NCBI GenBank assembly: GCA_023657465.1
Contig: JAGTJX010000003.1
Span: 311,889-375,888, forward strand
Direction of reading: 5' to 3'
Origin: Lysobacteraceae bacterium
GTDB taxonomy: Bacteria > Bdellovibrionota > UBA1018 > JAGTJX01
DNA: 64,000 nt
Positions 28,100 through 47,455 of this stretch are shown here, in pieces. The notes under the pieces were generated by a model that made no database searches, had not been told where the DNA came from, and worked only from the letters and a program-made list of their open reading frames with translations. A program made the translations under genes and the position numbers. Numbering within the stretch: the first letter of the stretch is position 1; the number at the start of each line of letters is the position of its first letter.

Positions 28100-28111
28100 A
28101 TTTTATTCTTT

Positions 28112-29718: not shown

Positions 29719-31151
29719 GCTGCTTCTCCTTCTGCTCCGTGAGGGTAATGAGATGCCATGTGAAGCATCAAATCACTCAAGGATAGATTTTGATTTTTTT
29801 CTGAAACTTCTTTGAGCAATGAATTGTCAGGTGGATGTGTCGTTGAAAGCCAATACTCAAGCGGAGTTGGTCTATAAATTAAAGTGCCTTTGATCGACTC
29901 AGATTGCAGAAAGAATTCTGAATAAACACCTCTGACCTGTGACAGAGAAAAAGCATCTTTAGTTTCAACTGCATTGAGCTTCAAGTCATCTTTAAGTGTT
30001 TTTTCATTGCCTCGTTGCCTGAGAATAAAGCGATTAGGTGCATTGGCTAAGATCCCATCTCCGATTTCATCATTCTTCAAGTCTTTTACAGTCTGAGAAA
30101 TGGCTATAGCAGCACTAGAAAACTTTCTCATTTGTCGAAAACAATCTTCAACCCAACGAGCCGATGAATTCGCTCGTCCATCTCCTGATGAGCGAATCAT
30201 AGTATGTGCTTCATCTACAACAATGAGCGAACGTTGTGGAAAGCGCTTTTTAACTTCCCTCCAAATACAATCCATAACGACCAACATCGCCGCGCGAAGC
30301 AAATCAGGGTATCTCTGACATTCCTTCATTTCAAAATGTAGATGAGTTCCATCTAATAAAACATTTGTCTCCCCATCAAAAAGTAATCCGTAAGGATGCG
30401 GGTTACACCAGAGCGAAAGAAGTTTGGACAAACGCTTCATCTCAGAGTGTTGGCTACTCTCTAAGTGTTCGCGAAACTGTGAAAGACGTTTTGGCACATT
30501 GCTTTCGTAGAAAGTTAATATTTCCGTTTCAAGCAATGCTTTTTCAAGCTTCCCTAGGGTTCCTTGATCACCTGTGATTTCCTCTAAAAGAGCAGTAAGG
30601 AATTTAATTTTTTCTGGATCAGGGTGAGTTCCATTTTTAGGAAGGTCGAAGGGATTGATGCGTGTTCCTCCGTTCGGAGAAAGATCAATACTAGCACCTC
30701 CCAAGTAATCGATTGTGCGCTTGAAACTATTTCCAACATCGATAACAAAAGCAGACGGACGATCTTTGCTTTCACCTGCTGCCATTCCTAGAATCAATCC
30801 ACAGGCCAAAGTACTCTTACCTGAACCTGTTGATCCGATCAAAATGGCATTCGCACTCGGGCTTTTTTCAAAGAGCGAATATCCCATGATGCTCTGGTAG
30901 GGAGTTTCAAAAAGTATCTCAGCACTTTCGTGCCCATGGCCAACTCCAAACAATGGGAGAAAATCACAGAGGTGGCTTGCTAGTATTCGCTTCGGTCTAG
31001 TTATAAAAGTAGGTGCAAAAGGAAGGATTGAGAAGAATACAGGATATGCACCCACAGTTTCTTCAAACCATTGACAACCTGAACCAATTTTTGAGGTTTC
31101 ATCCAAGAGATGTTCAAAAGAATTATTCATGATCTGCACCCTCAAAAGTAA
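29715..31151 (-). CDS. VirB4/TrbE/CagE-family ATPase, C-terminal ATPase portion (separate frame from the N-terminal portion)
   Basis: Walker A IGSTGSGKSTLA and Walker B LIVVDEAHTMI. The frame is open from 31151, and the first start codon in that frame is a TTG at 31145. Confidence 0.8.
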   Translation of the reverse strand, partial: LLLRVQIMNNSFEHLLDETSKIGSGCQWFEETVGAYPVFFSILPFAPTFITRPKRILASHLCDFLPLFGVGHGHESAEILFETPYQSIMGYSLFEKSPSANAILIGSTGSGKSTLACGLILGMAAGESKDRPSAFVIDVGNSFKRTIDYLGGASIDLSPNGGTRINPFDLPKNGTHPDPEKIKFLTALLEEITGDQGTLGKLEKALLETEILTFYESNVPKRLSQFREHLESSQHSEMKRLSKLLSLWCNPHPYGLLFDGETNVLLDGTHLHFEMKECQRYPDLLRAAMLVVMDCIWREVKKRFPQRSLIVVDEAHTMIRSSGDGRANSSARWVEDCFRQMRKFSSAAIAISQTVKDLKNDEIGDGILANAPNRFILRQRGNEKTLKDDLKLNAVETKDAFSLSQVRGVYSEFFLQSESIKGTLIYRPTPLEYWLSTTHPPDNSLLKEVSEKNQNLSLSDLMLHMASHYPHGAEGEAA

Positions 31152-32199
31152 TTACATGAAAAGAAGTCGCTAGCAGCTTGTCACCAGAGGAAATCATTGC
31201 TGATAGCGTATCTTCAACATCCTGAAGCTGGCTTTCTGCATATAGATTTCTAACAGTATTTCCCGATGCCATCCCTTGAGCTAATCTCTGTTTGCGTGAA
31301 AGACGCTCCCTTTCTTCGGTTTGCGGTAGTACCAACAAGGTCATAACAAGTGAAAATGGCTTTCCTAAAACCGTTAAGGAACTCATCAAGCAGGGAAAAG
31401 AACTCTCTGGAAGAGTTTTTAAAGTTCCAATTTTTACCTTCGCTCTTCCTAGATTCAAGCCGCTTCTCGACTCAACAAGCTCAGATAAGCAAAAGTTTTC
31501 TGATAAAGCCTGATTTTTACTTTCAGTTAAGTTTAGAAAAATTTTCCTATCAGGATTTAAAAAGCGAAAAATAATTTCCATCACATCGCCTTTTTTAGCT
31601 TCATCAGTTTCAAACCCCAATGCATCTAAACCAGATTTTAATGCTTCATAAACTGCCATTGTTTCTTCACGGATCGCTTGAGAAGTCTTCAATTGCGTTG
31701 AATGATTTCTATTCGACGCAATAAAGGAAAATGCGCCCAGTTGCTTACCTGTCCGTATCTTCACTGAGGGTGGCACTCGTAGCGTCATGTAAATCTTCGT
31801 TTGGTGCAAAAATCCATCACTCCAGAGTTTCTTCAATTCATTCAGCTTCATTTCAAACAGTCTTTGGTTTGCAGAACCTTCTTCTTTGACCGCTTCATGT
31901 GAATGAGTTTTTTTCCAGTTAGTAAATGCCTGATCGGAACTTTCATTGGTTCTTTCTCGATTCAGTAGGATTTGAACTAAAGTACCTTCTGGAATGAGAC
32001 CTAAAACCGAAAGCAAACCCGATCTCATGACTTCAAAATCATCATCGGTATAAGACATGCAGTTTTTTGGAACTAATGAGAATGTTTTGGTAGCACTCCC
32101 ATCCTTTAACCAAAGCAGTCCTGTTTCTTCCTCAAAAGAAACGTAGGGCATAAGATCGTGAAGCAGGTGTTCGCCTGGTCTTTTGTCGATTGCGTTCAT
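31123..32199 (-). CDS. VirB4/TrbE/CagE-family ATPase, N-terminal domain
   Basis: CagE_TrbE_VirB-like N-terminal pattern (LLWLKDGSATKTFSL...). The combined length of 358 + ~476 aa equals a normal VirB4. The frame break lies within 31125-31151 at a TTTT run. Confidence 0.75.
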   Translation of the reverse strand: MNAIDKRPGEHLLHDLMPYVSFEEETGLLWLKDGSATKTFSLVPKNCMSYTDDDFEVMRSGLLSVLGLIPEGTLVQILLNRERTNESSDQAFTNWKKTHSHEAVKEEGSANQRLFEMKLNELKKLWSDGFLHQTKIYMTLRVPPSVKIRTGKQLGAFSFIASNRNHSTQLKTSQAIREETMAVYEALKSGLDALGFETDEAKKGDVMEIIFRFLNPDRKIFLNLTESKNQALSENFCLSELVESRSGLNLGRAKVKIGTLKTLPESSFPCLMSSLTVLGKPFSLVMTLLVLPQTEERERLSRKQRLAQGMASGNTVRNLYAESQLQDVEDTLSAMISSGDKLLATSFHVITFEGADHE

Positions 32200-32485
32200 T
32201 TTTTTCCTCCAAACTAAATGGGCTAATTAATGTTATTCGTGATCGAAATAACTGAAGTAGATAGTGAATCCCGTGCTGAGGTGGGTGTGTTCGATTCAAA
32301 ATTAATAAGGTGATTCCAACGCCAGCCGAAAGCAGCAGTGAAATAAGTGCAGAGAATGGCACTCCTCTCAGCAGCGGACTGATGATGGCATACGCAAGGG
32401 CACAGGCTGCAAGCTCCATTGGCGATAACCCCATGATCCTTGCAGGTTCTTCCAGATTCCTCGGAATCTTTTGTTGTAAGGACAT
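32132..32485 (-). CDS. VirB3/TrbD-like small membrane protein (tentative)
   Basis: ~115 aa from MSLQQK, with a hydrophobic hairpin ALAYAIISPLL...LISLLLSAGVGITLLIL. It overlaps the VirB4 start, as is common for VirB3-VirB4 pairs. Confidence 0.4.
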   Translation of the reverse strand: MSLQQKIPRNLEEPARIMGLSPMELAACALAYAIISPLLRGVPFSALISLLLSAGVGITLLILNRTHPPQHGIHYLLQLFRSRITLISPFSLEEKNERNRQKTRRTPASRSYALRFF

Positions 32486-32766
32486 TAAGCTGCCACTCGG
32501 TGCTGTAGGAATGACAAGATGCTTGGCGCAGTAAAAGAAATCACAGTGCCTACGCAACTCCAAAACAACATTCTTTTTGCGCTTTCGTCACCCATTGCTA
32601 ACTTGAAACCAGCAAAAATAATCCCACCAATACAAAATGTGGGTGCCAACACATCTAAGATTGCCGATTGCAAGTTGCTCATCATGGACTCGACGCTTGC
32701 AAAAGCAGAAATTGGGGTTAGTAGAACAGTCCAAATCAAAGGACTCAGTTTTTTATTTTTTTTCAT
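32485..32766 (-). CDS. VirB2/TrbC pilin-like protein
   Basis: 93 aa with a signal peptide plus two hydrophobic helices (TFCIGGIIFAGFKLAMG, LFWSCVGTVISF). Confidence 0.5.
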   Translation of the reverse strand: MKKNKKLSPLIWTVLLTPISAFASVESMMSNLQSAILDVLAPTFCIGGIIFAGFKLAMGDESAKRMLFWSCVGTVISFTAPSILSFLQHRVAA

Positions 32767-33568: not shown

Positions 33569-33904
33569 TCACTCTTTCTCAACAGATGCACGTTCAGAGA
33601 ATTTTACTCCTGCATCGACTTTTATGACGGAATAATGTTCGTCGAGTAGTTGTTCTACTCTTCCTGAACCAAGTTTTATTTTCTGACAACCTACCGTCGT
33701 GCGTGTTTCAGCTGCTTTGGGGGAAACACAAGAGTATCGGTAAATCGACACTTGATCCCCTTCGTTTAATTCATTGCTACCTAGGTTCACGTGCGCTTCA
33801 GAATCGCCCACCTTCATGATCACCGAACCCCGCTTAGGGGCGTGTGAGCATGCGGATAAAAGTAAAAAACAAACCATGGTTTCTAAAATTACTAATTTTT
33901 TCAT
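33569..33904 (-). CDS. lipoprotein, function unknown
   Basis: Lipobox LLLSAC|SH. Confidence 0.5.
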   Translation of the reverse strand: MKKLVILETMVCFLLLSACSHAPKRGSVIMKVGDSEAHVNLGSNELNEGDQVSIYRYSCVSPKAAETRTTVGCQKIKLGSGRVEQLLDEHYSVIKVDAGVKFSERASVEKE

Positions 33905-34023
33905 GAGATCCTCTTTCTTTTTTGCGTTACATTGATCTTATGTATTGCAAAGGCTTTGCCAGCCCTAAGAGGTCTAGAATTGAGTAGAGCTACTACATTC
34001 GGACAATTTTGCTCATGACTGAG

Positions 34024-35472
34024 TTATTCTGTTTCTTTGTTTTTATCTTCTACAAGATCAAGCTCTTCATCAGTCACATGCTGCTCAACAAAGCCATACT
34101 CTCTTTCCTTGCGATAAAGAGTTCTTCGTGTGAATCCAAGAATCTGCGCAGCCTGTTCTTTTCTTCCGCCTGTCTTCTCTAATATGACTTGCATGTATCT
34201 ACGCTCGAGCTGCTCAACAGTAGGAAAATCAGTGATTGCAGAACCAAAGAACTCTTCAGCATTTGTCACACCAGGCGTAGGAATATCGCCTTCACTAATC
34301 ATACTATCAGTAGCAAGCACAACAGCACGCTCAACCACGTTTTCAAGCTCTCTTACGTTTCCATCCCATCTAAAGCTCATGAGCTTATTCATGGCGCGCT
34401 TACTAAAACCTTTCACACGTAAATTATTGGTTGCAGAGTACTTTTGCAAAAAATGTTCTGCCAAGAGAGGCACATCTTCTTTTCTCTGTCTCAGGGGAGG
34501 AATAACAATAGGAATGACGCTGAGACGGTAATAGAGATCTTCTCTGAATCGTCCATCCTTCATTGCCGATTTAAGATCTTTATGGGTAGCAGCGATGATC
34601 CTGACATCTACATCCTTGGTCATGTTTTCACCCACCGCACGGACTTTCTTTTCTTGAATCACGCGGAGTAGCTTTGTTTGAAGGAGTACATTCATGTCCC
34701 CAATTTCATCTAGAAAGAGAGTTCCTCCTTCAGCTTCTTCAAACAAACCTCTTTTACGTTGAATCGCTCCTGTAAAAGATCCTTTTGCATGGCCGAACAA
34801 CTCAGACTCTAAAAGAGTTTCTGGGATAGCTGTACAATTGATAGCAACAAAAGGTTTTTTCGATCGTGGCCCGCTTTCATGAATAGCGCGCGCTACCATT
34901 TCTTTTCCGGTGCCACTTTCTCCCATAATAAGAATATTCGCAGTTGCTTGTGAAACTCTGGAGACCAGGTCAAAGACTGATTTCATCTCAGGACTTTTGC
35001 CTACAATTCCATTCATTGACCAAGAACGTTTCACGACTTGCCTGAGTGCTGTGTTATCTCTCTGAAGCTTACGATGCTCCATCGCGCGAAGCACGTTGAC
35101 CGACATCTCAGCTAGTTTGAATGGTTTTACAATGTAATGAAACGCTCCACGCCTCATTGCTTCGATCGCTGTCTCAATACTTCCAAAAGCTGTGATGAGA
35201 ATCACGGGAATTTCTGATCTGATTTCTTGTAGGCGAGAAGTGAATTCTAGGCCGCTGATCTCTGGCATGTTGATATCAGAGATAATCAAGTCGACATCTC
35301 CATTCTCTTTTTCAATGGATAGTGCGCCTCCTGGCGAAAGGTTCTGAATCGCATCGACTGCGGAAGGAAATACGTGCACATCATATCCTTCGCTACTGAG
35401 GAAGTCCTTGAGTAAGGAGCGCATTTCCTTTTCATCGTCGACCACTACAATTCGACCTTTAAAATCACTCAT
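34024..35472 (-). CDS. sigma-54-dependent response regulator (NtrC family: REC + AAA+ + Fis HTH)
   Basis: Receiver D-box, GAFHYIVKPF, Walker [25 protein letters not shown] and a C-terminal HTH. Confidence 0.9.
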   Translation of the reverse strand: MSDFKGRIVVVDDEKEMRSLLKDFLSSEGYDVHVFPSAVDAIQNLSPGGALSIEKENGDVDLIISDINMPEISGLEFTSRLQEIRSEIPVILITAFGSIETAIEAMRRGAFHYIVKPFKLAEMSVNVLRAMEHRKLQRDNTALRQVVKRSWSMNGIVGKSPEMKSVFDLVSRVSQATANILIMGESGTGKEMVARAIHESGPRSKKPFVAINCTAIPETLLESELFGHAKGSFTGAIQRKRGLFEEAEGGTLFLDEIGDMNVLLQTKLLRVIQEKKVRAVGENMTKDVDVRIIAATHKDLKSAMKDGRFREDLYYRLSVIPIVIPPLRQRKEDVPLLAEHFLQKYSATNNLRVKGFSKRAMNKLMSFRWDGNVRELENVVERAVVLATDSMISEGDIPTPGVTNAEEFFGSAITDFPTVEQLERRYMQVILEKTGGRKEQAAQILGFTRRTLYRKEREYGFVEQHVTDEELDLVEDKNKETE

Positions 35473-35582
35473 AAATCCAATGTCCTTAATATCAAGTTTG
35501 AGACAATTTTTCCCAATGGCGAGAAACTATAACTCGCTAGTAGCATGATTTACTAGTAAATTTAACTACTTAGCTCAATATA

Positions 35583-35600
35583 AAGCAGGATGCGTGCCAA
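35583..35600 (-). promoter_or_regulatory. sigma-54 -24/-12 promoter (TGGCAC-GCATC-CTGCT) upstream of the activator gene
   Basis: The minus-strand sequence TTGGCACGCATCCTGCTT matches the TGGCAC-N5-TTGCW consensus. It is located ~110 nt upstream of the ATG at 35472. Confidence 0.55.
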
Positions 35601-35608
35601 CTCCTAAA

Positions 35609-36091
35609 TTAGCTGGACGAGTGATCATCTAATAAGCTTCGTAGCATCCAAGCGGTCTTTTCATGCAACTGAATCCTCTGTGTAAGTAGATCTGCTGACG
35701 CTTCGTCATGTGCCTTATCAATCATAGGGAATATCGCTCGAGCAGTACGAATGATAATCTCGTGACCCTCTACTAGCTGACGAATCATCTCTTTGGCAGG
35801 GGGAACACCGTCTGCCTCTAATACAGAGCTCATTTTTGAAAATTCTCGATAAGTTCCGGGTGCTGGAAAACCAAGTGAACGAATTCTTTCTGCAATCAGA
35901 TCAACAGCAAGAGCAAGCTCTGTGTATTGCTGCTCGAACATCAAATGCAAAGTCTGGAACATCGAACCAGTCACATTCCAATGAAAGTTATGGGACTTTA
36001 AATAAAGCGTATATGAATCCGCAAGTAACCTTGAGAGTCCCTCTGAGATTTCTCTTCTACTCGTTTCATCAATTCCAATATTTATCTTCAT
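35609..36091 (-). CDS. dps: Dps (DNA-binding ferritin-like starvation protein)
   Basis: Ferritin-like di-iron motifs HNFHWNVTGSMF...HLMFEQQYTE; 160 aa. Confidence 0.85.
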   Translation of the reverse strand: MKINIGIDETSRREISEGLSRLLADSYTLYLKSHNFHWNVTGSMFQTLHLMFEQQYTELALAVDLIAERIRSLGFPAPGTYREFSKMSSVLEADGVPPAKEMIRQLVEGHEIIIRTARAIFPMIDKAHDEASADLLTQRIQLHEKTAWMLRSLLDDHSSS

Positions 36092-36106
36092 ATGTCATTT
36101 CTCCTT

Positions 36107-36466
36107 TTATCTGACGGTTTGTTTATTAAAGTACTTCATCGCAAATGCAGCAATCTGTTGATCCGTTGGATGATCTGAAGATTCACAACCCACTACTTTC
36201 TTTGCAGTGAGTGGGTGTTTTCCTTTCATGTAATTCTCAAAATGCGTTTTAGCGATACCTGGCCCGAGAATCAAAACCCGCTTGGCGGACTCAATGCTGA
36301 GTGCGATTTTTTCATAGAAATTCCAATTGTCTTTTTCGTCAGCATTCAAACGATGAGTATGATGCTCGACCATGGATGCGTGCAGCGTTTCTCGTTTCAT
36401 TTGATCGTCTGAAAAATGAAACAGCTTTGCATTTTCAAAATCTAACCACACAACTGATGAACTCAT
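36107..36466 (-). CDS. host-attachment-family (PF10116-like) small protein, paralog of 42988..43428
   Basis: KRVLILGPGIAKTHFENYM aligns with the VTIVASPHFLGVLRKEL core of the family (LivvAaP..LG.LR). Weak. Confidence 0.35.
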   Translation of the reverse strand: MSSSVVWLDFENAKLFHFSDDQMKRETLHASMVEHHTHRLNADEKDNWNFYEKIALSIESAKRVLILGPGIAKTHFENYMKGKHPLTAKKVVGCESSDHPTDQQIAAFAMKYFNKQTVR

Positions 36467-37662
36467 TTCTCCTCCTTTTGCTTTTTTGATAAAGCATCTA
36501 GCTCATTCAATTTCTTGCGAACTTCATTGGGAATATCAGTTCCACCACTGCCACTAAAACCTAAGTACACGCTTTGCTCGTAATGCTTAAAGCATTCTCT
36601 AGATCTATCCGAGTGTGGAGAATTATGAATACAAGCTAAATAATAAAACTCATTGCCCTCATTGAGATTCACATCTCGAAGGACTTCATAGCACAACCCT
36701 AAAAAGTACAGAGCTTCTGCCGATCTCAAACTCTTTGGATATAAAGCTAATAAATCATGTAATACGGCGCTAGCACGAAGATAAAGAACATCCGCCGATC
36801 GATCATATGGATATTTTTGAATTTCCTTGGCTTGACTCATAAGTTTTATTGCTAGAGCAAAATAACCCTCTTCAGTCATAGGCTTTTCACTCGGTTCATT
36901 TTTCCAAGACTTTAAGCTCTCTTTCCATTGCAAGGCTTGTTCTTTAAAAAAGAATGGAGCTTTTGTATTAGCCAACACTTTCTCTACAATGACTAATGCA
37001 CGGTCAGGATTTTTTTTAACACGAATCACCAATGCCAAAGAAGAACGAGCAGCCTTCTCCCAATCGTAGAGATAGTTTTCAGTAGCACGAGGCTCTGAAA
37101 TTAGTTTTTGATACTCATCCAAAGCTCGATCAAATTGACGAATTGCTGTATAGAAGTTGCCCCTTTCCAAAGTTCGTAAAGACTCGAATCCAGAAGGCGC
37201 TGTAAGTGAAACGAGGCTTGGACCGTCACTATTTCTTGTATGACAAGCAACGCAAAAGCGAGTCACTGACTTTAGAACATCCCTAGAGTAAGCACGGTTT
37301 CCCCACTTCATTGACTTTACCGCAAAGTCAGCCTCACTCGAAAACTGACCTGCAATCCACGGAAGCGTTGGATCTCCATCAGGAAAAACCATCTTTTTAG
37401 AACTTAAATCATGCGCATGGTCGGCTAGCTGTTGCGCTGAACGTTCAATTTTTTTGAAGTTTTTCGGATTGTTGTACCTTTCGTCACTATTCAGATCGAG
37501 AAGCAAACTTCCCAGAACTTTTTCAATCTCTCGCATTTTAGTGCTCCACTTAGGGTTTTTATAAGTGGAGCACTCCTCTTGCGTGATTCCCCTGAATGGC
37601 AGGAGCGCAAAGAACATAGTAAAAATAAATCCTGTCCAACTCATGGGTAGTTTAAGTTTCAT
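36463..37662 (-). CDS. secreted protein with a single CxxCH haem-binding motif and TPR-like helical C-terminus
   Basis: Signal/TM anchor, RFCVACHTRNSDGPS. Confidence 0.4.
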   Translation of the reverse strand: MKLKLPMSWTGFIFTMFFALLPFRGITQEECSTYKNPKWSTKMREIEKVLGSLLLDLNSDERYNNPKNFKKIERSAQQLADHAHDLSSKKMVFPDGDPTLPWIAGQFSSEADFAVKSMKWGNRAYSRDVLKSVTRFCVACHTRNSDGPSLVSLTAPSGFESLRTLERGNFYTAIRQFDRALDEYQKLISEPRATENYLYDWEKAARSSLALVIRVKKNPDRALVIVEKVLANTKAPFFFKEQALQWKESLKSWKNEPSEKPMTEEGYFALAIKLMSQAKEIQKYPYDRSADVLYLRASAVLHDLLALYPKSLRSAEALYFLGLCYEVLRDVNLNEGNEFYYLACIHNSPHSDRSRECFKHYEQSVYLGFSGSGGTDIPNEVRKKLNELDALSKKQKEEK

Positions 37663-37674
37663 AATTGCTCCAGA

Positions 37675-38091
37675 TCAGTACTGAATTCTCTCTTTGTAAT
37701 TTTCAGTAAGAAATTCTCCGAATACTCGCATGCCGTCGGTAGCTGTAAAGATTCCAACTACTTTGCCATTCTCTTGCTGAATGATCGCGCATCCATACTT
37801 ATGCTCTGCCATTTCAGTAATGACGTGATTCAATGGAACATTCGGGCTCACAGTGTAAGGCTCAGGAGTCATCACATCTTCAACTAAGAGTGGATCTGAA
37901 CCAGCTAAGCTTGCAGCGAGCTTTAAATCTCGATCTGTCAAAACTCCAACCAGCTTGCCGCCCTCTTGGACAGGAAGATGGCGAACTCGATACTCTCTCA
38001 TCATCGAGAGCGCACGATCAATCGAGATGTCCTTTCCGATCGTATGTGGCTGGGTCGTCATGTACTTTTGAATTTGTGGCATTTGTTTCAT
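37675..38091 (-). CDS. CBS-domain pair protein
   Basis: Two CBS repeats (VRHLPVQEGGKLVGVLTDRDL... and CAIIQQENGKVVGIFTATD). Start at MKQMPQIQKYM with RBS AAGGAGAAAAAT. Confidence 0.8.
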   Translation of the reverse strand: MKQMPQIQKYMTTQPHTIGKDISIDRALSMMREYRVRHLPVQEGGKLVGVLTDRDLKLAASLAGSDPLLVEDVMTPEPYTVSPNVPLNHVITEMAEHKYGCAIIQQENGKVVGIFTATDGMRVFGEFLTENYKERIQY

Positions 38092-38131
38092 ATTTTTCTC
38101 CTTATGGTTTTTAAGTTCACTCCTATTCATA

Positions 38132-38149
38132 AAGCAGGGAATAGGCCAA
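38132..38149 (-). promoter_or_regulatory. sigma-54 -24/-12 promoter (TGGCCT-ATTCC-CTGCT) for the CBS/cytochrome/Dps operon
   Basis: GG and GC lie at the consensus spacing, ~40 nt upstream of the ATG at 38091. Confidence 0.5.
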
Positions 38150-38318
38150 GATGAGGACAGAACCACGTCATCTATAAACGGCTGAAACTATTGATTTTTT
38201 AATTGATCTCATTTTTAGAAGAGCCTTTTAAAAGCAACCGAATCAGACAATTTGTCTCAATGATCAGTTGTTATTTCTCAAAGCGTTTTTTTATTACCAT
38301 TTTATGCAGCGAAGGTAT

Positions 38319-38334
38319 CGGCATGGATGTTGCT
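38319..38334 (+). promoter_or_regulatory. sigma-54 -24/-12 promoter (CGGCAT-GGATG-TTGCT) for the usp gene
   Basis: Consensus GG-N10-GC with TTGCT at -12, ~50 nt upstream of the ATG at 38384. Confidence 0.5.
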
Positions 38335-38383
38335 CTAGCTCTTAAGCAGATAACTTTTGATAACAGAGAAAGAGGAATAAAAA

Positions 38384-39343
38384 ATGACGATAGCTAGGAA
38401 AAAAATGAAGATTCTTTGGGCACTGGATCCATTCGATGATCTAGATGAAATTTACACAAAGTCCTTCCAGGCATTAAATAGTCTTTCAAACTATGTGCAG
38501 CTTGAAGTTGATCCTGTGTATTTATTAAGCCCTCTTCAATTAAACATCGATTTTAATCTTACGACTGTAAATTCCGAAGTCTATATTTCTGCTGCCAAGA
38601 AGGCTTTGGAAAAAAAATTAGAAGGAATTCCCTTGTCAGAATTGAATGATCCAAAAGTGCTAGTGAATAGCTCATCTCGCTTAAGGCAAGTCGTTCAGGA
38701 ACTAGCTGACCAAGCTCTTTCTAGAGAATACGATATGATTCTTGTTGGATCACATGGAAGAAAAGGACTGAATCGTATGATGATGGGGAGTTTTGCTGAA
38801 CAACTCCTGCTTCAATCAAAAGTACCTGTATTCATCATTGGAAATGAAACAGAGAAATTGAACACTCGTTGGAATCAGAAGCCCATTCATATTCTGATTG
38901 CAAACGATCTATCTAATCCAAGCTCGTCATTCTTTAGTAAAGCACTAGGGTTAGCTCAATCACTTGAGGCAAAAATTACGCTATTAAGAGCAGTAACTCG
39001 ACCAGCAGAAATGGTTTTACAATCTGGTGTTTATTTACTTTCTGGTGGCTTTATTCCAACACCAATTTTTATGCGCCAAGAAGATGAACGCCTAAAGAAT
39101 GCGGCCAATATCATTCTTCACGAAGCTGAAAAACAACACATACAAACAGAAATGATCTTGGATAATAATGCTCAATCCGTTGTGCAATCCATTTTGAGTC
39201 ATGCAAAGGAAAGCAATGCTTCGTTCATCGTTATGGCTGCAGAAAGTGGGCAAGTTGCATCAACACTTCTTGGAAGCATCACAAGGCAAGTTGTTAGACT
39301 AGCCCCATGTCCAGTGCTAGTTTATCGAGTCGACAAAAAATAG
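38384..39343 (+). CDS. tandem-domain universal stress protein (UspA x2)
   Basis: ILVGSHGRKGLNRMMMGSFAEQLL and SITRQVVRLAPCPVLVY ATP-binding-type Usp motifs in each half. Confidence 0.8.
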   Translation: MTIARKKMKILWALDPFDDLDEIYTKSFQALNSLSNYVQLEVDPVYLLSPLQLNIDFNLTTVNSEVYISAAKKALEKKLEGIPLSELNDPKVLVNSSSRLRQVVQELADQALSREYDMILVGSHGRKGLNRMMMGSFAEQLLLQSKVPVFIIGNETEKLNTRWNQKPIHILIANDLSNPSSSFFSKALGLAQSLEAKITLLRAVTRPAEMVLQSGVYLLSGGFIPTPIFMRQEDERLKNAANIILHEAEKQHIQTEMILDNNAQSVVQSILSHAKESNASFIVMAAESGQVASTLLGSITRQVVRLAPCPVLVYRVDKK

Positions 39344-39349
39344 CCCTAT

Positions 39350-40474
39350 TCATTTAGGAAGGGTGATTACAAATCGAGTATTGGGTGAAGCCTGATCTAG
39401 ATAAATTTGGCCGTTATGTTTTTCAATGATTGTTCTGGAAATACTTAATCCCAAACCCGAACCCTTTCCAGCGGGCTTTGTTGTAAAAAAAGGAAGGAGA
39501 ATTTTTTCAGCGATTTCCTGCGGGATGCCTTTTCCGCTGTCAGTTACAGCTATCACTATGCATGAGTCCTGATCTAATACTTGGATTTTAATCCATTTTT
39601 CAGAAAATCCTACAATAGCGTCTCTAGCATTGCCGACTAAATTCACCAGAATTTGACTGATCTGAGTTTCTTGGCAATTGACTTCGATCCGGTCATCAAC
39701 CTCAGAGACATCTACGAGAATATTGTTCTTCTGGAGACCTTCATTTGCAAAACTTAAAACATCTTTCACTAAAAGACCTACTGACACTTTTTGAAAAGGA
39801 TCATGAGTGCCATCTCGCGACAATGCTCGCATTCCACGAATGATCCGAGTCATTCGCTCGGTCAGCTCTTTTACTGTCCCAATACTTCTCAAAATTTCTT
39901 CAGACGTGGACTTTCCTGATAAAATTTGCATTTCAAGAAACTCCATCCTGCCGCTGATTGCAGCTAATGGATTTCCTAACTCATGTGCGGTGCCTGCCGC
40001 TAATTCACCCAAGCTCGCCATTTTCTCAGCATGCAACAGAGCTACGCGCTGATCTTGCGCCTGTTCTTCTATCTGTTTTAGTTCGGTAATATCCGTTCGA
40101 ATCGCAACATACTGAATAGGCTTTCCTGATGAATCCATAAAAGGAACAATCGTGGTAAAGACCCAATAGAAGGTTCCATCTTTAGCTTTATTCTTGAGCT
40201 CACCTTTCCATACTTTTCCTGCAGAAATTGTTCTCCAAAGATTGCTAAAAAACTCTTTATGATGATGAGCTGAATTGATTAGACGATGAGTTTTTCCAAT
40301 CAACTCCTCTCTCGAATATTTTGAAATCTCGCAAAATTTGTCATTCACATACGTGATGACTCCATTTGCGTCTGTAAAAACGATGATGGAGGATTGATCC
40401 AAAGCACGACGTAACTCGTCCGCATCTTTTTCGCTTCTGATTAGTCGTTCTTCGACGCTCATTTGCTTACCCAT
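39350..40474 (-). CDS. cytoplasmic PAS-domain sensor histidine kinase
   Basis: PAS (FTDANGVITYVNDKF), H-box LGELAAGTAHELGNPL, and HATPase motifs (NLVGNARDA, DSGKGIP, GSGLGLSIS). Confidence 0.85.
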   Translation of the reverse strand: MGKQMSVEERLIRSEKDADELRRALDQSSIIVFTDANGVITYVNDKFCEISKYSREELIGKTHRLINSAHHHKEFFSNLWRTISAGKVWKGELKNKAKDGTFYWVFTTIVPFMDSSGKPIQYVAIRTDITELKQIEEQAQDQRVALLHAEKMASLGELAAGTAHELGNPLAAISGRMEFLEMQILSGKSTSEEILRSIGTVKELTERMTRIIRGMRALSRDGTHDPFQKVSVGLLVKDVLSFANEGLQKNNILVDVSEVDDRIEVNCQETQISQILVNLVGNARDAIVGFSEKWIKIQVLDQDSCIVIAVTDSGKGIPQEIAEKILLPFFTTKPAGKGSGLGLSISRTIIEKHNGQIYLDQASPNTRFVITLPK

Positions 40475-40653
40475 ACTGGTGTTGACAACTTATTGATTTT
40501 GGCAACCCCAGTCAATTTAATTAAAAATGTATTGTATGGTCGCTCGATTAAGATTTCGAATCCATACGTTTCCTGTGTATTGCACCCAGTAATAAGCAAG
40601 GCTCGCTATGAAGAGCACACCTATCAGAATAGGGAACACTCTCGATTTCACCT

Positions 40654-42009
40654 TCATATTTCAAACTCCTGTTCTTGCGCAGGGATGACACTCTCCCAGC
40701 CCAATTCATCTTTCATTTTTACTCTGAGTGCATCGGAAGACTGAGGTTCTCCATGATTGATAAAGGTTTGTCTTGGTGCTGCTTTGAAACCTCTCAACCA
40801 ATTCAGGGTTTCTGCTTGGTCGGCATGAGCAGATAAACCTGATATTTCCAGAACACTCGCTCGAACAGGAATGTATCTACCGTGTATTTTCAGTTCCGAG
40901 ATACCATCTTTCAGTAAACGTCCTCTTGTACCTGCGGCTTGATAACCAACTAGTAGAACGGAGTTTTTAGGGTCGGGTAAATGTGCCGCCAGATGGTGCA
41001 ACACTCTTCCACCCGATATCATTCCACTTCCTGCAATCACGATAGAAGATTCTTCAGACCTCATCACGTCAATAGATTGTTTTTGACTTTGAACAACAGT
41101 TACAACATCCCACATTGCTTTCATCTGCGTTCTATCCAAAGTATGCCAATTGGGATGGGACTCAAATATCTCAGTCGCTCGTATTCCCATCGGAGTATCT
41201 AAATAAATTGGAATTCCTGGGAGCTGACTTCTCGATTTAAGGAGAGAAAATAAAAAAAGTAAATCTTGTGCTCTGCCTACTGCAAAACTAGGAATAATGA
41301 GTTTCCCCTTTTTTGAATGGACATCAAAAACTATTTTAGAAAGCTCTGTGAGAGGATCAGAGGGATGATGAGTTCTATCTCCATATGTAGATTCCAACAC
41401 TAAATAGTCAGCCTTCTCAATTCTCTCGGCTTGAGGGTAAAGAAGAGGTCTTTCACGACCGAGATCTCCTGAAAATACGAGCAATTTTTTTTCAATTTCC
41501 AGTTCAATAAAGGTCGATCCTAGGATATGCCCACTCGGAGTTAACCTAAATTGAGCTCCTCCAGGAAGCTTCTCCCACCGATTGACACCCGTAGTATCAA
41601 AACGCTTGAGGGCTTCCTTCACGTCCTTTTGCGAATAAAGAGGATTAGCGGGATGGTGTTTACTGTAGCCTTTTTCATTAGCAAAATCGGCATCTTCTTC
41701 CTGTAGCTTGGCACTGTCCAAGAGGATAATTTCGGCAAGATCACGTGTTGCTGAGCTACAAAAAATACTTCCGCGAAATCCTTGCTTTACTAACAAAGGA
41801 ATGTAGCCAGAGTGATCCAAATGAGCATGGGTCAATAAAATGGAATCTATTTCTCTGGGATCAGCTGGAAAACGCTTCCAGTTGTTTAACCGTAGAGACT
41901 TGACTCCTTGAAACAACCCACAATCCACCAAGAGGCGGTGTTTACCATATGTAACTAAAGTCTTTGAACCCGTTACAGTTTGAACACCGCCTAAGAATTG
42001 AATCTTCAT
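40654..42009 (-). CDS. MBL-fold beta-CASP metallo-hydrolase (RNA/DNA-processing nuclease family)
   Basis: HAHLDHSGYIP (HxHxDH) motif and a beta-CASP-type C-terminal half; 451 aa. Confidence 0.7.
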   Translation of the reverse strand: MKIQFLGGVQTVTGSKTLVTYGKHRLLVDCGLFQGVKSLRLNNWKRFPADPREIDSILLTHAHLDHSGYIPLLVKQGFRGSIFCSSATRDLAEIILLDSAKLQEEDADFANEKGYSKHHPANPLYSQKDVKEALKRFDTTGVNRWEKLPGGAQFRLTPSGHILGSTFIELEIEKKLLVFSGDLGRERPLLYPQAERIEKADYLVLESTYGDRTHHPSDPLTELSKIVFDVHSKKGKLIIPSFAVGRAQDLLFLFSLLKSRSQLPGIPIYLDTPMGIRATEIFESHPNWHTLDRTQMKAMWDVVTVVQSQKQSIDVMRSEESSIVIAGSGMISGGRVLHHLAAHLPDPKNSVLLVGYQAAGTRGRLLKDGISELKIHGRYIPVRASVLEISGLSAHADQAETLNWLRGFKAAPRQTFINHGEPQSSDALRVKMKDELGWESVIPAQEQEFEI

Positions 42010-42986
42010 TGTTGCACTTGCTGTATTTTTTCTTCAGTTATTTGAGTTCTTTTTTCCTGATGTTCTGAATCAGGATGGATCACCCAAACAGGTTGTTCTG
42101 AATAACGAATCACCTGACGAGCCGTGCTTCCTATGATGACAGAGGAAACAGCACCACTATGAGAAACCATTGCAATCATGCTACTCAATCGTTTGGAACA
42201 CTTAAGGATCGCTTGAGCGACTGAAGTTCTTTTTGAGCGATCAAAAATGATGCCCATATGAATTCCTCGCATTTTTGCTATTTCTACATATTGCTTTGCA
42301 GATTGCTTAGCTCCTTCCAATTGCTCCTTCATGATTCTGTCGTAATAAGCATAAGTACTCAAAGGAACATCAAACACGGGATAACCCGCAAAGCCTTCTT
42401 TGTAGAATAAAACAATTTTGCTTTTATTCTCGGCAGCAAAACGAAGAACCTTTGCAAAAGCTTCGCTTGATCCTTGCGAAAAATCTGTTGGAAAAAGGAT
42501 TGTCTTAAATTCGAGTGTTCTATGCCAAGTGGGATGAACAATCATCAAAGGAACGTCTGAATATAAGCTGAGTGTTTCAGCAAAACTTCCCAAAAGCCAG
42601 CGTCGCAACCCTTTACGACCATGACTTGATACAACGATCAGTCCTGCGCCAATTTTTTTTGCGTATGCAATCAAAGCGTGTCCTTGATCACGTGCCGATG
42701 CGGATTTTGCAGAAACAACATGAAATGGTTGAATCCCAGGAATCACAACTCTTCTTAAGGTTCCTTCTAGCCTTTCTGCGCCTTCGTTTTTAATCCTACC
42801 TAAATAGCCAGGGTCTTCCTGAGAGAGGAGATCCAAAGACGATCTTGAGTTAATATAAACAGGCTTAACCCATTTTGAACCGTTCTTTACAATTCCACGC
42901 AAGCACCAAGCTGCTGATTTCAACACATCTTCGTCACTAGAAAATGGATCGACTGCCCAAATAATTTTTTTATTTTCATTTTTCAT
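42006..42986 (-). CDS. tandem-domain universal stress protein
   Basis: IVVSSHGRKGLRRWLLGSFAETLSLYSDVPLMIVH and a second Usp-like half. Confidence 0.8.
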   Translation of the reverse strand: MKNENKKIIWAVDPFSSDEDVLKSAAWCLRGIVKNGSKWVKPVYINSRSSLDLLSQEDPGYLGRIKNEGAERLEGTLRRVVIPGIQPFHVVSAKSASARDQGHALIAYAKKIGAGLIVVSSHGRKGLRRWLLGSFAETLSLYSDVPLMIVHPTWHRTLEFKTILFPTDFSQGSSEAFAKVLRFAAENKSKIVLFYKEGFAGYPVFDVPLSTYAYYDRIMKEQLEGAKQSAKQYVEIAKMRGIHMGIIFDRSKRTSVAQAILKCSKRLSSMIAMVSHSGAVSSVIIGSTARQVIRYSEQPVWVIHPDSEHQEKRTQITEEKIQQVQQ

Positions 42987-42987
42987 A

Positions 42988-43428
42988 TCAAGCTACCTTT
43001 TCAATTAATTCTGTTTTTATTTCTTTCACTAACGCTTGCTTAATCGAACTGTGTAACTCTTTTCTCAGCACACCTAAAAAATGAGGACTGGCAACAATCG
43101 TTACTTTGTTACAAAGTCCTTTTTGATGAGAAAGATAAAGAACTTCAGCGATTTTTCTCGCAAACTTTCGAGAGTAATGCCCTAGTTTTGCATCCTGACT
43201 CCCTACAGCGTAGTGTAGAGTACGAGAGCCATCCATTCGTCCTTCATGTTTACGTCCGTAGTTATTAGTCAAACGTAGAATATATTGAAAATCCTTGTGA
43301 TTTGATTTTGATTCATAAAATACAGCATCTGCTTGATTTGCTAAAATGTACCATCGTGAATTCTTCATGACTGAGACCTTTCTCTTTTGTAGGACTGAAT
43401 CGAAAGAGGATTGAGGGGGGGAACTCAA
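42988..43428 (-). CDS. host-attachment-family (PF10116-like) protein
   Basis: RWYILANQADAVFYE...KVTIVASPHFLGVLRKELHSSIKQALVKEIKTELIE matches the family core (LvvvAaP..LG.LR......E..Kdlt). Confidence 0.45.
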   Translation of the reverse strand: MSSPPQSSFDSVLQKRKVSVMKNSRWYILANQADAVFYESKSNHKDFQYILRLTNNYGRKHEGRMDGSRTLHYAVGSQDAKLGHYSRKFARKIAEVLYLSHQKGLCNKVTIVASPHFLGVLRKELHSSIKQALVKEIKTELIEKVA

Positions 43429-43450
43429 TCCTCTTTCGAGCCATATCGTC

Positions 43451-43966
43451 CTAGTTGATTTTTTTTGTCTCTTTAGACGTCTTGCCTAGAACCTTTTCAA
43501 CTAAAGTTCCTGCTGATTTTGCAATCTTGACGCTCTCTGCTTGTGCTTCTTCCAATTTAGGAAATGCAATTCGCAAAACACCGTCTTGATATTCAGCTTC
43601 GACTTGAGAAGCTTTCAGAGCCAAAGGAACACTAAAGCTACGGTAGAAAGACCTGTAGTTTTGTTTTTCTTTTAATTCAGCTTTGACTGCTAGCAATCCA
43701 TTCCCAACCTGAAGATTGATATCTTCGATTTTCATTCCAGGAACATCCATAGCGAGCAGATAGTGTGTTTTGCCTTCTGTGATTTCACAGGATGGTTCAA
43801 AAGCGACTCTCTCTCCCAACCAGTTATTGTCGAGATCAGCAAAGGCCGCAGCAGTTTCCATAATTTGGTTGATTTGGCGTTGAATTCCAGACACTCCCCA
43901 AAATGGGTTATGAAAAGTTGTTGCTGGTTTCACACTCTTACGATTTGTTTCAGTTAAGTTGTTCAT
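43451..43966 (-). CDS. Hsp20/alpha-crystallin family small heat-shock protein
   Basis: Alpha-crystallin domain YLLAMDVPGMKIEDINLQV...DGVLRIAFPK. Start at MNNLTETN with RBS AAGGAG. The track's longer N-terminal extension was rejected because it overlaps the sigma-54 promoter. Confidence 0.85.
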   Translation of the reverse strand: MNNLTETNRKSVKPATTFHNPFWGVSGIQRQINQIMETAAAFADLDNNWLGERVAFEPSCEITEGKTHYLLAMDVPGMKIEDINLQVGNGLLAVKAELKEKQNYRSFYRSFSVPLALKASQVEAEYQDGVLRIAFPKLEEAQAESVKIAKSAGTLVEKVLGKTSKETKKIN

Positions 43967-44013
43967 TTTTTTATCTCCTTGTTTGTTTTTTTGTTTGCGT
44001 ACACCTTTAACTA

Positions 44014-44029
44014 AGCAAAGGACCTGCCA
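44014..44029 (-). promoter_or_regulatory. sigma-54 -24/-12 promoter (TGGCAG-GTCCT-TTGCT) for the hsp20/host-attachment/usp/MBL operon
   Basis: The minus-strand sequence TGGCAGGTCCTTTGCT lies ~50 nt upstream of the hsp20 ATG. Confidence 0.55.
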
Positions 44030-44102
44030 AAGTGCCAAGTTTTGTAATGCCTTGATATTTTTAGATTTTTTTATAACGCATCTCATTAATAAGAAAATCA
44101 TT

Positions 44103-44121
44103 TTGAGCAAAAATTGCTCAA
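44103..44121. promoter_or_regulatory. perfect palindrome TTGAGCAA-AAA-TTGCTCAA in divergent promoter region
   Basis: 8-bp arms with a 3-nt spacer, between the hsp20 operon (minus strand) and 44179..45021 (plus strand). Confidence 0.4.
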
Positions 44122-44178
44122 AAGTTATTCGATTCGTCTCATGAAGTGATAAAAGTAAAAAATTGAAACGATTGATAC

Positions 44179-45021: not shown

Positions 45022-45173
45022 ACAAGCTGGGTCATAATGTCTGATAGCCGAGTTCTCTTAACCCTCTATTATCTCTTAGACTCTATATAATTGTCTCAAC
45101 TGCCACACCAGCGTACTCAGCAATGTGGCACTATTCATGCACTCTAAAACTTAACAAAGGTTGGAGAATTATT

Positions 45174-45563
45174 ATGGGTTTTAAAAAAATTTGCTTCTTA
45201 CTTTCAGCCAGTGTCCTTCTTATGAACCTGAGTGTTGCTGATGATGCTTATCAAAAAGCTTTTGAAGGAATGGGTGTAGCCATTAATCTTCATTATATTT
45301 TAGGTGATAAAAACGCGAAGCTATTTATTGCTGGAAATAAAGTTGCACAAGTGGGCTTAGGGAATGGTACAAAAGTCATTGAAATCAGTTCCATCGATCA
45401 GAATGGTAACCGTGAGTTGCTCCGCTTTTCTCCTCAGGCGGGCTACTACAAAGTAGAAACACTACCCAGCGTTCCTCCTCCTTACACTTTAGTGGTAAAA
45501 ACTAAAATCAAAAACAAAGAAGAGCACATCAAGATTAATGTGCAGCCCGGTGTAATCCATTGA
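45174..45563 (+). CDS. secreted hypothetical protein
   Basis: Signal peptide MGFKKICFLLSASVLLMNLSVA. The longer track ORF starting at 45123 was rejected. Confidence 0.45.
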   Translation: MGFKKICFLLSASVLLMNLSVADDAYQKAFEGMGVAINLHYILGDKNAKLFIAGNKVAQVGLGNGTKVIEISSIDQNGNRELLRFSPQAGYYKVETLPSVPPPYTLVVKTKIKNKEEHIKINVQPGVIH

Positions 45564-46439: not shown

Positions 46440-47207
46440 TTATTGAGCAACCCAACCACCATCTACTGCTAGAGGGTGTCCTGTTACAAATGATGAAGCA
46501 TCCGAACAAAGCCAGAGAACGGCCTGAGCAACTTCTTCAGGTTGACCTACTCTGCCAATGGGTTCGCCATCGGATAGTTGCTTTTGGATTTGAGCTTCGC
46601 CATGAGTCACTCGTTCAATCATGGCGGTTTGGATGACGCCTGGACAGACAGCGTTTACGCGAATCTTGGATTTTGCATACTCAAGAGCAGCAGTTTTTGT
46701 GAGGCCTATGACTCCATGTTTACTAGCTACATAAGCAGGAGATCCCTGAAAGCCAATGAGTCCAGCAACAGATGAGCAGTTGACGATGGATCCGCTACCT
46801 TGTTTGATCATTTGTGGAATCTGGTACTTCATGCAAAGCCAAACGCCTTTGAGATTAACATCAATCACTCGGTTCCAGTTTTCTTCTGTGGTATCAGCTG
46901 TGTATGCAGATTGTCCTTCGGTACCTGCATTATTAAATGCAAAATCGATTCGACCAAAAGTTTCGATGGTTTTGCCAATTGCACTTTTAACTTCAGAGTC
47001 CTTTGAAACATCACATTTTATCAAAAGAGAACGAACTCCCAACTCCTCGACCTTCCTTGCGGTTTGAGCCCCTTCATCGGTAAGTACATCAGCAATGACT
47101 ACAGAAGCTCCTTCCTTTGCGAAGGCGAGTGCAGTCGCTCTGCCGATCCCAGAAGATGCCCCAGTGATGAAAACAACTTTCCCTTTAAAATTATTCTGTA
47201 AACTCAT
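46440..47207 (-). CDS. SDR-family oxidoreductase (FabG-like 3-oxoacyl reductase family)
   Basis: [16 protein letters not shown] and [13 protein letters not shown] motifs. Confidence 0.85.
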
Positions 47208-47455
47208 TTATATTTTTTCTCTCTCTTTCAAGACTAGTTCCTGCACGAAGAGTGCCAGCGCTCATCTTGCTGCTTATTTGTTTAGAGCTCTTATTTTGAA
47301 ATGATTTGAGACAAATCTACTCAACGATCTAACCATACGGTTCATTTAAAAATGGAAGGTAGGTTCAATTACATCCTGCTATAGTTGAGAGCAATTCATC
47401 ATTGGCACACTATCTGCACTCTCTATTTATGAAAACAATCAAGAAGGAAAAATTT

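Follow-up and report, generated by a model that had tools for sequence, protein, structure and literature searches.

Bdellovibrio-like bacteria are usually held to be strict aerobes, yet they inhabit sediments, biofilms and soils with fluctuating oxygen, and we know of no regulator described for their anoxic survival. The DosR/DevR regulon of Mycobacterium tuberculosis is induced by hypoxia through a NarL/LuxR-type regulator that works with a sigma-70-class polymerase and is fed by the GAF-haem sensors DosS and DosT. In Myxococcus xanthus, the NtrC-like, sigma-54-dependent regulator NmpR is encoded in an autoregulated operon that begins with a CBS gene, and induction of the CBS promoter by hypoxia requires NmpR; its experimentally defined regulon includes a universal stress protein (USP) gene, a P-type ATPase and cbb3 oxidase, hemN, a hemerythrin and the nmpUTS genes, and its relay inverts the signal, NmpU being active in oxygen and switching NmpS off (PMC11841059; PMC6211767). 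The lxa locus of Burkholderia cenocepacia (six USPs, an alpha-crystallin and phospholipid-binding BON proteins) serves the anoxic survival of an obligate aerobe (PMC3721108). Here we describe a cluster of stress genes at about 33.5-48.7 kb of a 64-kb stretch of DNA (contig JAGTJX010000003.1; the whole stretch is called the window below). We think it probable that the cluster is a two-component, sigma-54-dependent stress regulon that is redox- or oxygen-sensed and run through one activator and a 19-bp operator.

A sequence-only reading of this DNA had proposed a 10-kb sigma-54 regulon with four -24/-12 promoters, each 40-110 nt upstream of a start codon with a good ribosome-binding site. All four (P1-P4) are present where it had placed them, with exact GG-N10-GC spacing, at 41-111 nt from their start codons, each of which is preceded by a good, purine-rich ribosome-binding site. 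The proposed extent was too small, missing four more promoters, an operator and a reach to 48.7 kb. The eight sigma-54-type promoters of the cluster, at 33.9-47.5 kb, start at 33946, 35584, 38133, 38319, 44014, 45126, 47242 and 47403:

33946-33961, minus strand: sigma-54-type promoter TGGCAAagcctTTGCA, 1 mismatch, intergenic, 41 nt before the lipoprotein ATG
35584-35599, minus strand: P1, TGGCACgcatcCTGCT, the sigma-54-type promoter of the activator gene itself, 111 nt upstream of its ATG
38133-38148, minus strand: P2, TGGCCTattccCTGCT, 41 nt before the CBS ATG at 38091
38319-38334, plus strand: P3, cGGCATggatgTTGCT, 49 nt before the tandem Usp ATG
44014-44029, minus strand: P4, TGGCAGgtcctTTGCT, 44 nt before the true Hsp20 ATG at 43969
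45126-45141, plus strand: sigma-54-type promoter TGGCACtattcATGCA, 32 nt before the ATG at 45174 (small secreted protein)
47242-47257, minus strand: sigma-54-type promoter TGGCACtcttcGTGCA, 34 nt before the short-chain dehydrogenase ATG
47403-47418, plus strand: sigma-54-type promoter TGGCACactatCTGCA, 37 nt before the BON ATG at 47456

The GG-N10-GC spacing is exact in all eight, within TGGCAC-N5-TTGCW, to which five sites have one mismatch, P3 two and P2 three (the true start of the CBS gene being the ATG at 38091, not the GTG at 38166). With at most one mismatch, this consensus occurs seven times in the window against 2.24 expected, and none of 100 shuffles reached seven; read by eye, all seven sites are intergenic and aimed at a start codon, at distances of 29-111 nt (29-44 nt if P1 is left aside), and six of the seven fall in 33.9-47.5 kb. 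At two mismatches or fewer, the whole-window count is at chance level (31 vs. 29.6 expected). P2 and P3 are singly not above chance; their equivalents are conserved upstream of the CBS and Usp genes of related loci. Pairs of sigma-70-type hexamers show no enrichment in the cluster (24 vs. 30.5 expected); a few weak ones are present, e.g., at 38357-38385. The window encodes three activators with GAFTGA-type loops, which implies that the genome carries rpoN.

The seventh site with at most one mismatch (59573-59588, plus strand, TGGCCCagagtTTGCT) lies 29 nt before the start of the third sigma-54 activator gene (59618-60940). We excluded it from the regulon because it precedes a different activator and has no TTGAGACAA-type palindrome (described below) nearby. 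This third activator, which has GSFTGA and lacks a receiver domain, probably belongs to a separate circuit. Elsewhere in the window, two overlapping TGGCTA-N5-TTGGCT repeats lie at 57599-57625, just downstream of a tRNA-Leu(CAA) gene (57749-57835), and do not have the -12 GC register of a sigma-54 promoter.

For comparison we used twelve orthologous loci with DNA (activator 61-80% identical; L numbers below), which were retrieved via orthologues of the window activator; in a metagenome scan, 7 of 80 loci were true orthologues and the others were NtrC paralogues of a generic kind that lack the cluster. Across the twelve loci the same genes recur in shuffled order: genes for the CBS protein, a haem protein of 400 amino acids (aa) and a 120-aa protein, in some loci together with the activator gene, form one operon, a PAS kinase gene stands beside the activator gene, and tandem Usp, beta-CASP nuclease and Hsp20 genes lie nearby. 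In these loci, 28 of 46 sigma-54-like sites are non-coding, although non-coding DNA makes up 8.8% of the sequence (P = 1.8e-18). The P1 equivalent, TTGGCAT-N5-CTGCTCT, recurs in 8 of the 13 loci aligned. L048, L049, L127, L128 and L130 have it 84-127 nt ahead of the activator gene, and it also lies upstream of that gene in L096 and, with 3 mismatches, in L129. Few columns of the alignment are nearly invariant, and these include the -12 GC and one G of the -24 GG. A P2 equivalent, TGGCC[CT]-N5-[CT]TGCT, lies upstream of the CBS genes of L127, L128, L129 and L130, with variants in L046 and L051, and the Usp genes of L046, L128 and L129 carry sigma-54-like sites.

The promoters are accompanied by a recurring 19-bp palindrome with the consensus TTGAGACAA-N-TTGTCTCAA (core TGAGAC-N5-GTCTCA), which was found by eye in the intergenic regions and then tested. 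It is present in five of the six intergenic regions that bear promoters, and the sixth has one half-site only:

33998-34016: operator-like palindrome TTCGGACAATTTTGCTCAT, 13/18 matches, centre 46 nt upstream of the -24 element
35498-35516: operator palindrome TTGAGACAATTTTTCCCAA, 16/18, in the activator leader, downstream of P1
35519-35537: possible second, weaker site GCGAGttatagtttCTCGC (low confidence), centre 21 bp from that of the 35498-35516 site
38242-38260: operator palindrome ATCAGACAATTTGTCTCAA, 16/18, common to P2 and P3, which are divergent; its centre lies upstream of both, by 103 nt (P2) and 68 nt (P3)
44103-44121: operator palindrome TTGAGCAAAAATTGCTCAA, centre 83 nt upstream of P4
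45091-45099, plus strand: exact operator half-site TTGTCTCAA, just upstream of the 45126 promoter
47306-47324: operator palindrome TTGAGACAAATCTACTCAA, 15/18, between the divergent 47242 and 47403 promoters, centre 58 and 88 nt upstream

Except for the leader site of the activator, the centres of the full sites thus lie 46-103 nt upstream of -24 elements. Four exact copies of the 9-mer TTGTCTCAA are present in the 64 kb, where 1.52 would be expected, and all four fall within the 1156 nt of promoter-bearing intergenic DNA. Over the whole window, both the degenerate core at three mismatches or fewer and ATTGTCTCAA at one or none occur at chance frequency, and a search for direct and inverted repeats over the cluster did not bring the operator out; the signal of the palindrome is in its placement and conservation, not in its raw count. 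In the window and the related loci together, 11 of 18 palindrome matches (at least 14/18 positions) lie within 160 nt of a sigma-54-like site, a zone that takes up 8.8% of the sequence (P = 4.5e-8), and two more of the 18 adjoin three-mismatch sites. The palindrome accompanies the activator in 10 of 12 loci; its placement downstream of the activator's own promoter is kept in L049, L127, L128, L129 and L130, and the P2/P3 palindrome has equivalents in L051, L127, L128, L129 and L130. The weaker leader site at 35519-35537 aligns with GAGAC/GGGAC palindromes of the relatives.

Also in this leader, at 35540-35560, is a perfect short palindrome (TTTACTAGTAAA) that has P1 on one side and the operator sites on the other; it is not obviously conserved in the relatives. 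An Rfam scan returned tRNA only, with no riboswitch or small RNA in the leaders. Two other kinds of wiring were considered and rejected. The FNR box TTGAT-N4-ATCAA has 10 matches in the window (6.3 expected) and none in the intergenic regions of the cluster; the NmpR box GCGCA-N5-TGCGC, at two mismatches or fewer, is not enriched (18 vs. 14.3 expected) and is found at no promoter except as the variant GAGCA-N5-TGCTC at 44105.

Two genes of the cluster appear to form its regulatory pair:

34024-35472, minus strand: NtrC-family sigma-54 activator with a receiver (phospho-Asp D66), an AAA+ domain with GSFTGA and HTH_8 (Pfam)
39350-40474, minus strand: soluble PAS-HisKA-HATPase kinase (Pfam)

The domains of the activator are clear (Response_reg 1.5e-27, Sigma54_activat 1.1e-72, HTH_8 5.7e-12), with GSFTGA at residue 231. 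Its score falls far below the cut-off of the NCBIfam equivalogs AtoC (478.7/714), NtrC (457.3/558.6), ZraR (427.1/760) and NtrX (367.2/600), and it misses that of GlrR too, as of every other equivalog compared. In eight activator orthologues, GSFTGA, the Walker motifs, D12, D13, D66 and K116 are invariant and the helix-turn-helix (HTH) nearly so, which fits a conserved DNA target. An exact-sequence look-up of the activator returned nothing; a homology search gave one protein of 100% identity, from a MAG (metagenome-assembled genome) labelled Xanthomonadaceae, and orthologues of 72-80% identity, which, if they carry an organism name at all, are assigned to Bdellovibrionota, Bdellovibrionales, Oligoflexia or Bacteriovoracia. 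Co-occurrence with the palindrome and conservation suggest that this activator binds it.

The kinase is the probable sensor for the activator, a partnership to which the gene neighbourhoods of the relatives point: in L128-L130, a kinase with this PAS (about 62% identical) adjoins the activator gene, together with genes for a single receiver protein and a receiver-HisKA-CA hybrid. Pfam gave no globin domain. The best match of the window kinase's PAS in the PDB is the flavin adenine dinucleotide (FAD)-PAS (PAS-A) of MmoS (3EWK, 1.8e-50), followed by Aer (8DIK) and NifL PAS1 (2GJ3). The flavin-pocket residues of Aer, taken from PMC9668731, have counterparts in the kinase: H53, N85 and R115 of Aer correspond to H63, N95 and R126, and T18 to S28. 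The PAS is predicted to be of the FAD-binding type. Compared with the transmitters of the relatives, that of the window kinase is nearer to the one of the S-type hybrid (about 31% identity, E = 1e-29 to 1e-32); with the U-type the identity is about 25% (E = 1e-13). The FAD-type PAS thus occurs on two transmitters, a direct, NtrB/AtoS-like one in the window and L046 and that of a relay kinase in L128-L130, and the genes for the receiver protein and the hybrid kinase are absent from the clusters of the window and L046. The simplest reading is that a three-protein relay was replaced by one kinase, in which the sensor of the relay was joined to a transmitter able to phosphorylate the activator directly.

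A weak sigma-70-like promoter precedes the kinase gene at 40559-40531. The window holds a second two-component sigma-54 module at 49523-53756 (minus strand), with a lipocalin-like and a periplasmic binding-protein-like gene, a histidine kinase (50917-52245) and a GAFTGA activator (49523-50920).

The genes behind the promoters are as follows:

33569-33904, minus strand: small lipoprotein, 111 aa, lipobox LSAC, no Pfam match; unit U1
35609-36091, minus strand: Dps-like ferritin (Pfam Ferritin 8.4e-25; NCBIfam Dps below cut-off)
36107-36466, minus strand: 119-aa stand-alone eRF1/Pelota central-domain protein (weak pelota match; predicted fold)
36463-37662, minus strand: 399-aa protein, secreted, with TPR-like helices and a single haem c motif, CxxCH(TR)
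37675-38091, minus strand: CBS-pair protein (Pfam CBS 1.1e-27), first gene of U3
38384-39343, plus strand: tandem universal stress protein, two Usp domains (Pfam)
40654-42009, minus strand: MBL/beta-CASP/RMMBL ribonuclease-type protein (Pfam; below the NCBIfam Cas14 and aCPSF1 cut-offs)
42006-42986, minus strand: second tandem universal stress protein, two Usp domains (Pfam)
42988-43368, minus strand: Host_attach/baeRF12 protein, a stand-alone eRF1-type domain (Pfam)
43451-43969, minus strand: Hsp20/alpha-crystallin (Pfam), first gene of U5
45174-45563, plus strand: small signal-peptide protein of no known family
46440-47207, minus strand: short-chain dehydrogenase/reductase (Pfam adh_short_C2 8e-75)
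47456-48109, plus strand: three-BON-domain protein, OsmY-like (Pfam BON 4.5e-48)
48109-48663, plus strand: nitroreductase (Pfam Nitroreductase 8.4e-32), its start overlapping the BON stop codon

They fall into eight transcription units:

U1, from the 33946 promoter: lipoprotein
U2, from P1: activator
U3, from P2: CBS protein, haem c protein, eRF1-like protein and Dps, with read-through into the activator gene
U4, from P3: tandem Usp
U5, from P4: Hsp20, baeRF12, tandem Usp and beta-CASP nuclease, possibly into the kinase gene
U6, from the 45126 promoter: secreted protein
U7, from the 47242 promoter: dehydrogenase
U8, from the 47403 promoter: BON protein and nitroreductase, the latter probably co-transcribed with the BON gene

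The CBS-to-activator gene order of U3 is kept in L046 and L127. Most of the earlier gene calls held: Pfam confirmed the NtrC-type activator, Dps, the CBS pair, the two tandem-Usp proteins, Hsp20, the MBL/beta-CASP nuclease and the soluble PAS kinase, and in the protein described as secreted with a haem motif, both the signal peptide and the CxxCH(TR) motif are invariant across 5 orthologues. Its 101 homologues (about 100 clusters) carry few organism labels; all of these are Bdellovibrionota except the window's own (Xanthomonadaceae), and none is Myxococcus. Two proteins had been assigned to the host-attachment family. One of them, 42988-43368, belongs there (Host_attach 64.2 bits, cut-off 26.7; baeRF_family12 54.5 bits, cut-off 27.7). 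The other, 36107-36466, has no Pfam family and no Host_attach match even at E = 1, and hhalign against 42988-43368 was not significant; we rejected its membership at the sequence level, the two proteins having in common the fold class alone. The AlphaFold2 model of 36107-36466 (pLDDT 85.9) has Pelota, aRF1, eRF1 and Balon, including Rv2629, as its top Foldseek matches and aligns with the central domain only of Pelota, aRF1 and Balon (TM-score 0.6-0.7 by query, 0.2-0.3 by targets). Stand-alone bacterial eRF1-type domains have a proposed role in translational shutdown (PMC6514570), and Balon genes are reported to adjoin those for Hsp20, OsmY and Hrp1, with Rv2629 induced by hypoxia (PMC10901736). 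A scan of the genome collection with the beta-CASP protein gave matches of at most 50% identity (Variovorax, Blastocatellia and a Bacteriovorax stolpii MAG) with no gene order in common.

In the relatives, respiration genes join the set. In L127, L128 and L129 the neighbour of the activator gene is a cbb3-type oxidase operon (ccoI/S/N/O/Q/P/G), and in L049 it is a ccoI-type P-type ATPase gene; a sigma-54-like promoter and an operator-like sequence stand ahead of the cbb3/ccoI genes in L049, L127 and L129. The relatives also carry PF27154 (ORF11_beta) genes with sigma-54-like promoters (L046 6970-7737, L128 18763-20675, L130 3865-4328), and the palindrome lies between some divergent copies; no PF27154 homologue was recognised in the window. 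A Pfam search of the small neighbouring open reading frames in the relatives was uninformative.

Control of the cluster by sigma-54, which the sequence-only reading had claimed, is well supported by the sequence evidence: the predicted promoters are enriched, intergenic, correctly oriented, conserved in the 12 loci and paired with a palindrome, and the adjacent activator has both GSFTGA and an HTH. Such wiring is less unprecedented than had been implied, since the NmpRSTU hypoxia regulon is known (PMC11841059). As for the signal, we infer low oxygen or a reduced state, from the FAD-type PAS, the cbb3 operons that carry the motifs in relatives and a gene content like that of DosR and lxa, down to an eRF1-like protein with the predicted fold of Rv2629/Balon. 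The earlier likening to hypoxia/dormancy regulons is plausible on these grounds.

The circuit could then work as follows. The soluble kinase (39350-40474) would sense falling oxygen or respiratory redox state through its flavin and phosphorylate D66 of the activator (34024-35472), which would oligomerise on the 19-bp palindromes upstream of the -24 elements and, by ATP hydrolysis and its GSFTGA loop, open sigma-54 holoenzyme complexes at the eight promoters. The output would be a survival and translation-shutdown set, with a high-affinity cbb3 oxidase added in the relatives. Feedback may arise at the activator gene itself, which would be transcribed from P1, with operator sites in the leader, as well as by polymerase that reads through from the CBS operon.

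Several points weigh against this picture. The main weakness of the low-oxygen assignment is that the PAS feeds an NmpUTS-like inverting relay in the relatives and a direct transmitter here; because the relay of Myxococcus inverts its signal, homology gives no guide to the sign of the response, and oxidising instead of reducing conditions may be what induces the regulon. The FAD is a prediction from sequence, and both the cbb3 operon and rpoN itself are absent from the 64-kb window. The activator is linked to the palindrome by association, with two other sigma-54 activators in the window, and the palindrome at P1 sits downstream of the promoter, an uncommon position for an enhancer that may point to repression. 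P2 and P3 depart from the -24 consensus and are individually unremarkable. Finally, the DNA comes from a metagenome-assembled genome whose label, Xanthomonadaceae, is doubtful.

Three other explanations come into question. A real sigma-54 regulon might answer to another signal, be it a general one of starvation or energy state, an oxidative or redox stress of opposite sign, or a predatory stage such as the non-growing attack phase. Hsp20, Dps, Usp and BON proteins are generic stress equipment, FAD-PAS sensors report redox state and not oxygen as such (PMC9668731), the direct transmitter could give a different sign from the inverting relay, and the window has no cbb3 operon. The cbb3/ccoI genes of three relatives (L049, L127 and L129) nevertheless have this pair of promoter and operator, hypoxia induces the nearest system characterised so far (PMC11841059), and the genes resemble the DosR and lxa sets, which are hypoxia-induced as well (PMC3721108, PMC10901736). 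We regard another signal as the serious alternative, though an unlikely one. It is improbable that the palindromes serve a different factor, or that the promoters are served by the activator at 49523-50920 or 59618-60940 while the adjacent activator controls something else. The presence of three activators in the window and the leader palindrome downstream of P1, a typical repressor position, would suit that arrangement; a different regulator is disfavoured because the motif travels with the window activator, accompanying its orthologues in 10 of 12 loci. The nearly invariant HTH also matches a conserved target, the five-base spacing of the half-sites fits NtrC-family sites including the NmpR site GCGCA-N5-TGCGC (PMC11841059), and the intergenic regions of the cluster have no FNR boxes.

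That the -24/-12 matches are chance or non-functional, the genes being transcribed from sigma-70-type promoters, is very unlikely in view of placement and conservation. P2 and P3 do have three and two mismatches, the count at two mismatches or fewer (31 vs. 29.6 expected) is what chance would give, and a few weak sigma-70-like hexamer pairs exist. Against this stand the seven sites with at most one mismatch (2.24 expected), all intergenic and correctly oriented, the conservation of sites over 12 loci with their non-coding placement (P = 1.8e-18), their pairing with a conserved palindrome, and sigma-70 matches below expectation. The redox- or oxygen-sensed sigma-54 regulon remains our preferred explanation.

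The label of the source MAG (Xanthomonadaceae; locus tags KA715_) is probably wrong. The GC content of the window is only about 42%, and where close homologues of three of its proteins (activator, haem protein, eRF1-like protein) carry an organism label, they come from MAGs of Bdellovibrionota, Oligoflexia or Bacteriovoracia. A mobile element at 21937-32563 adjoins the regulon, with a tyrosine integrase (21937-22887), an FtsK/SpoIIIE-type ATPase (24841-26202) and TraC/VirB4-like genes as two overlapping open reading frames (31123-32199, TraC_F_IV; 29715-31145, TraG P-loop). The GC content is about 0.40 over 18-46 kb and 0.45-0.47 in the flanks.

If the proposed regulon is real, it offers a complete and testable circuit (a predicted FAD-PAS sensor, one activator, a 19-bp operator and eight promoters) that would tie respiration status to chaperones, DNA protection and probable ribosome silencing, and its stand-alone eRF1-type proteins and beta-CASP nuclease would be candidates for new ribosome-hibernation or rescue factors. 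It would extend the NmpR-type oxygen regulon of Myxococcus, described in 2025, to a second phylum with a different sensor domain and relay, and would be a case of one output regulon re-plugged to new inputs. A bolder joint reading, which we put forward tentatively and consider doubtful, is that of a lineage-wide redox-sensed sigma-54 hibernation programme of the Bdellovibrionota, with the CBS-pair protein, the periplasmic haem c protein and the stand-alone eRF1/Pelota protein as its core. Together with baeRF12 and the beta-CASP nuclease, these might form a so far undescribed module that silences ribosomes and clears mRNA when respiration fails, and an NmpUTS-like inverting relay would have collapsed into a single chimeric kinase (the FAD-PAS with the transmitter of the last kinase).

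Among known systems, AtoSC, ZraSR and NtrBC share the domain architecture of the window activator and give its best NCBIfam similarities, and the kinase has an AtoS/NtrB-like transmitter; their gene neighbourhoods and targets are unrelated to the cluster. The lxa locus has a similar co-regulated set of USP, alpha-crystallin and BON proteins, with an Anr/Fnr-like TGA-N6-TCA motif (PMC3721108) where the window has sigma-54 wiring and no FNR boxes in its intergenic regions. The DosR regulon likewise contains Hsp20, tandem USPs, the CBS-pair protein Hrp1/Rv2626c, nitroreductases and the eRF1-like Rv2629/Balon (PMC10901736), but it is run by a NarL/LuxR-type regulator and GAF-haem kinases instead of a sigma-54 AAA+ activator and a PAS kinase, and Balon is a three-domain, aeRF1-like protein of the ribosomal A site, whereas the eRF1-like proteins of the window have a single domain.

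The nearest parallel is NmpRSTU, to which the locus is likened by the published description of NmpR (MXAN_4240) and not by sequence. Both have a sigma-54 activator gene in or fed by a CBS-first operon with a sigma-54 promoter, a USP gene in the regulon (behind P3 and in the P4 operon of the window), and inverted-repeat half-sites five bases apart upstream of -24/-12 promoters. The likeness extends to the relatives, with P-type ATPase/cbb3 genes behind promoter and operator in L049, L127 and L129, and with kinase, receiver and receiver-kinase hybrid genes in nmpU-nmpT-nmpS order in L128-L130. The two systems differ in their sensor (the haem protoglobin of NmpU vs. an FAD-type PAS), in their operator (GCGCA-N5-TGCGC vs. 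TGAGAC-N5-GTCTCA) and in their relay, NmpT and NmpS being replaced in the window and L046 by one kinase with a U-type PAS on an S-like transmitter. The phospho-Asp is D54 in NmpR and D66, after a conserved 12-residue insertion, in the window activator, which suggests divergence of the activator from NmpR. Beyond the NmpR set, the window has genes for Hsp20, Dps, BON and eRF1-type proteins, a nitroreductase, a beta-CASP nuclease and the haem c protein. The kind of regulon is already known from Myxococcus, and the interest of this variant lies chiefly in the rewired sensor and in the placing of eRF1-type and beta-CASP genes under predicted sigma-54 control.

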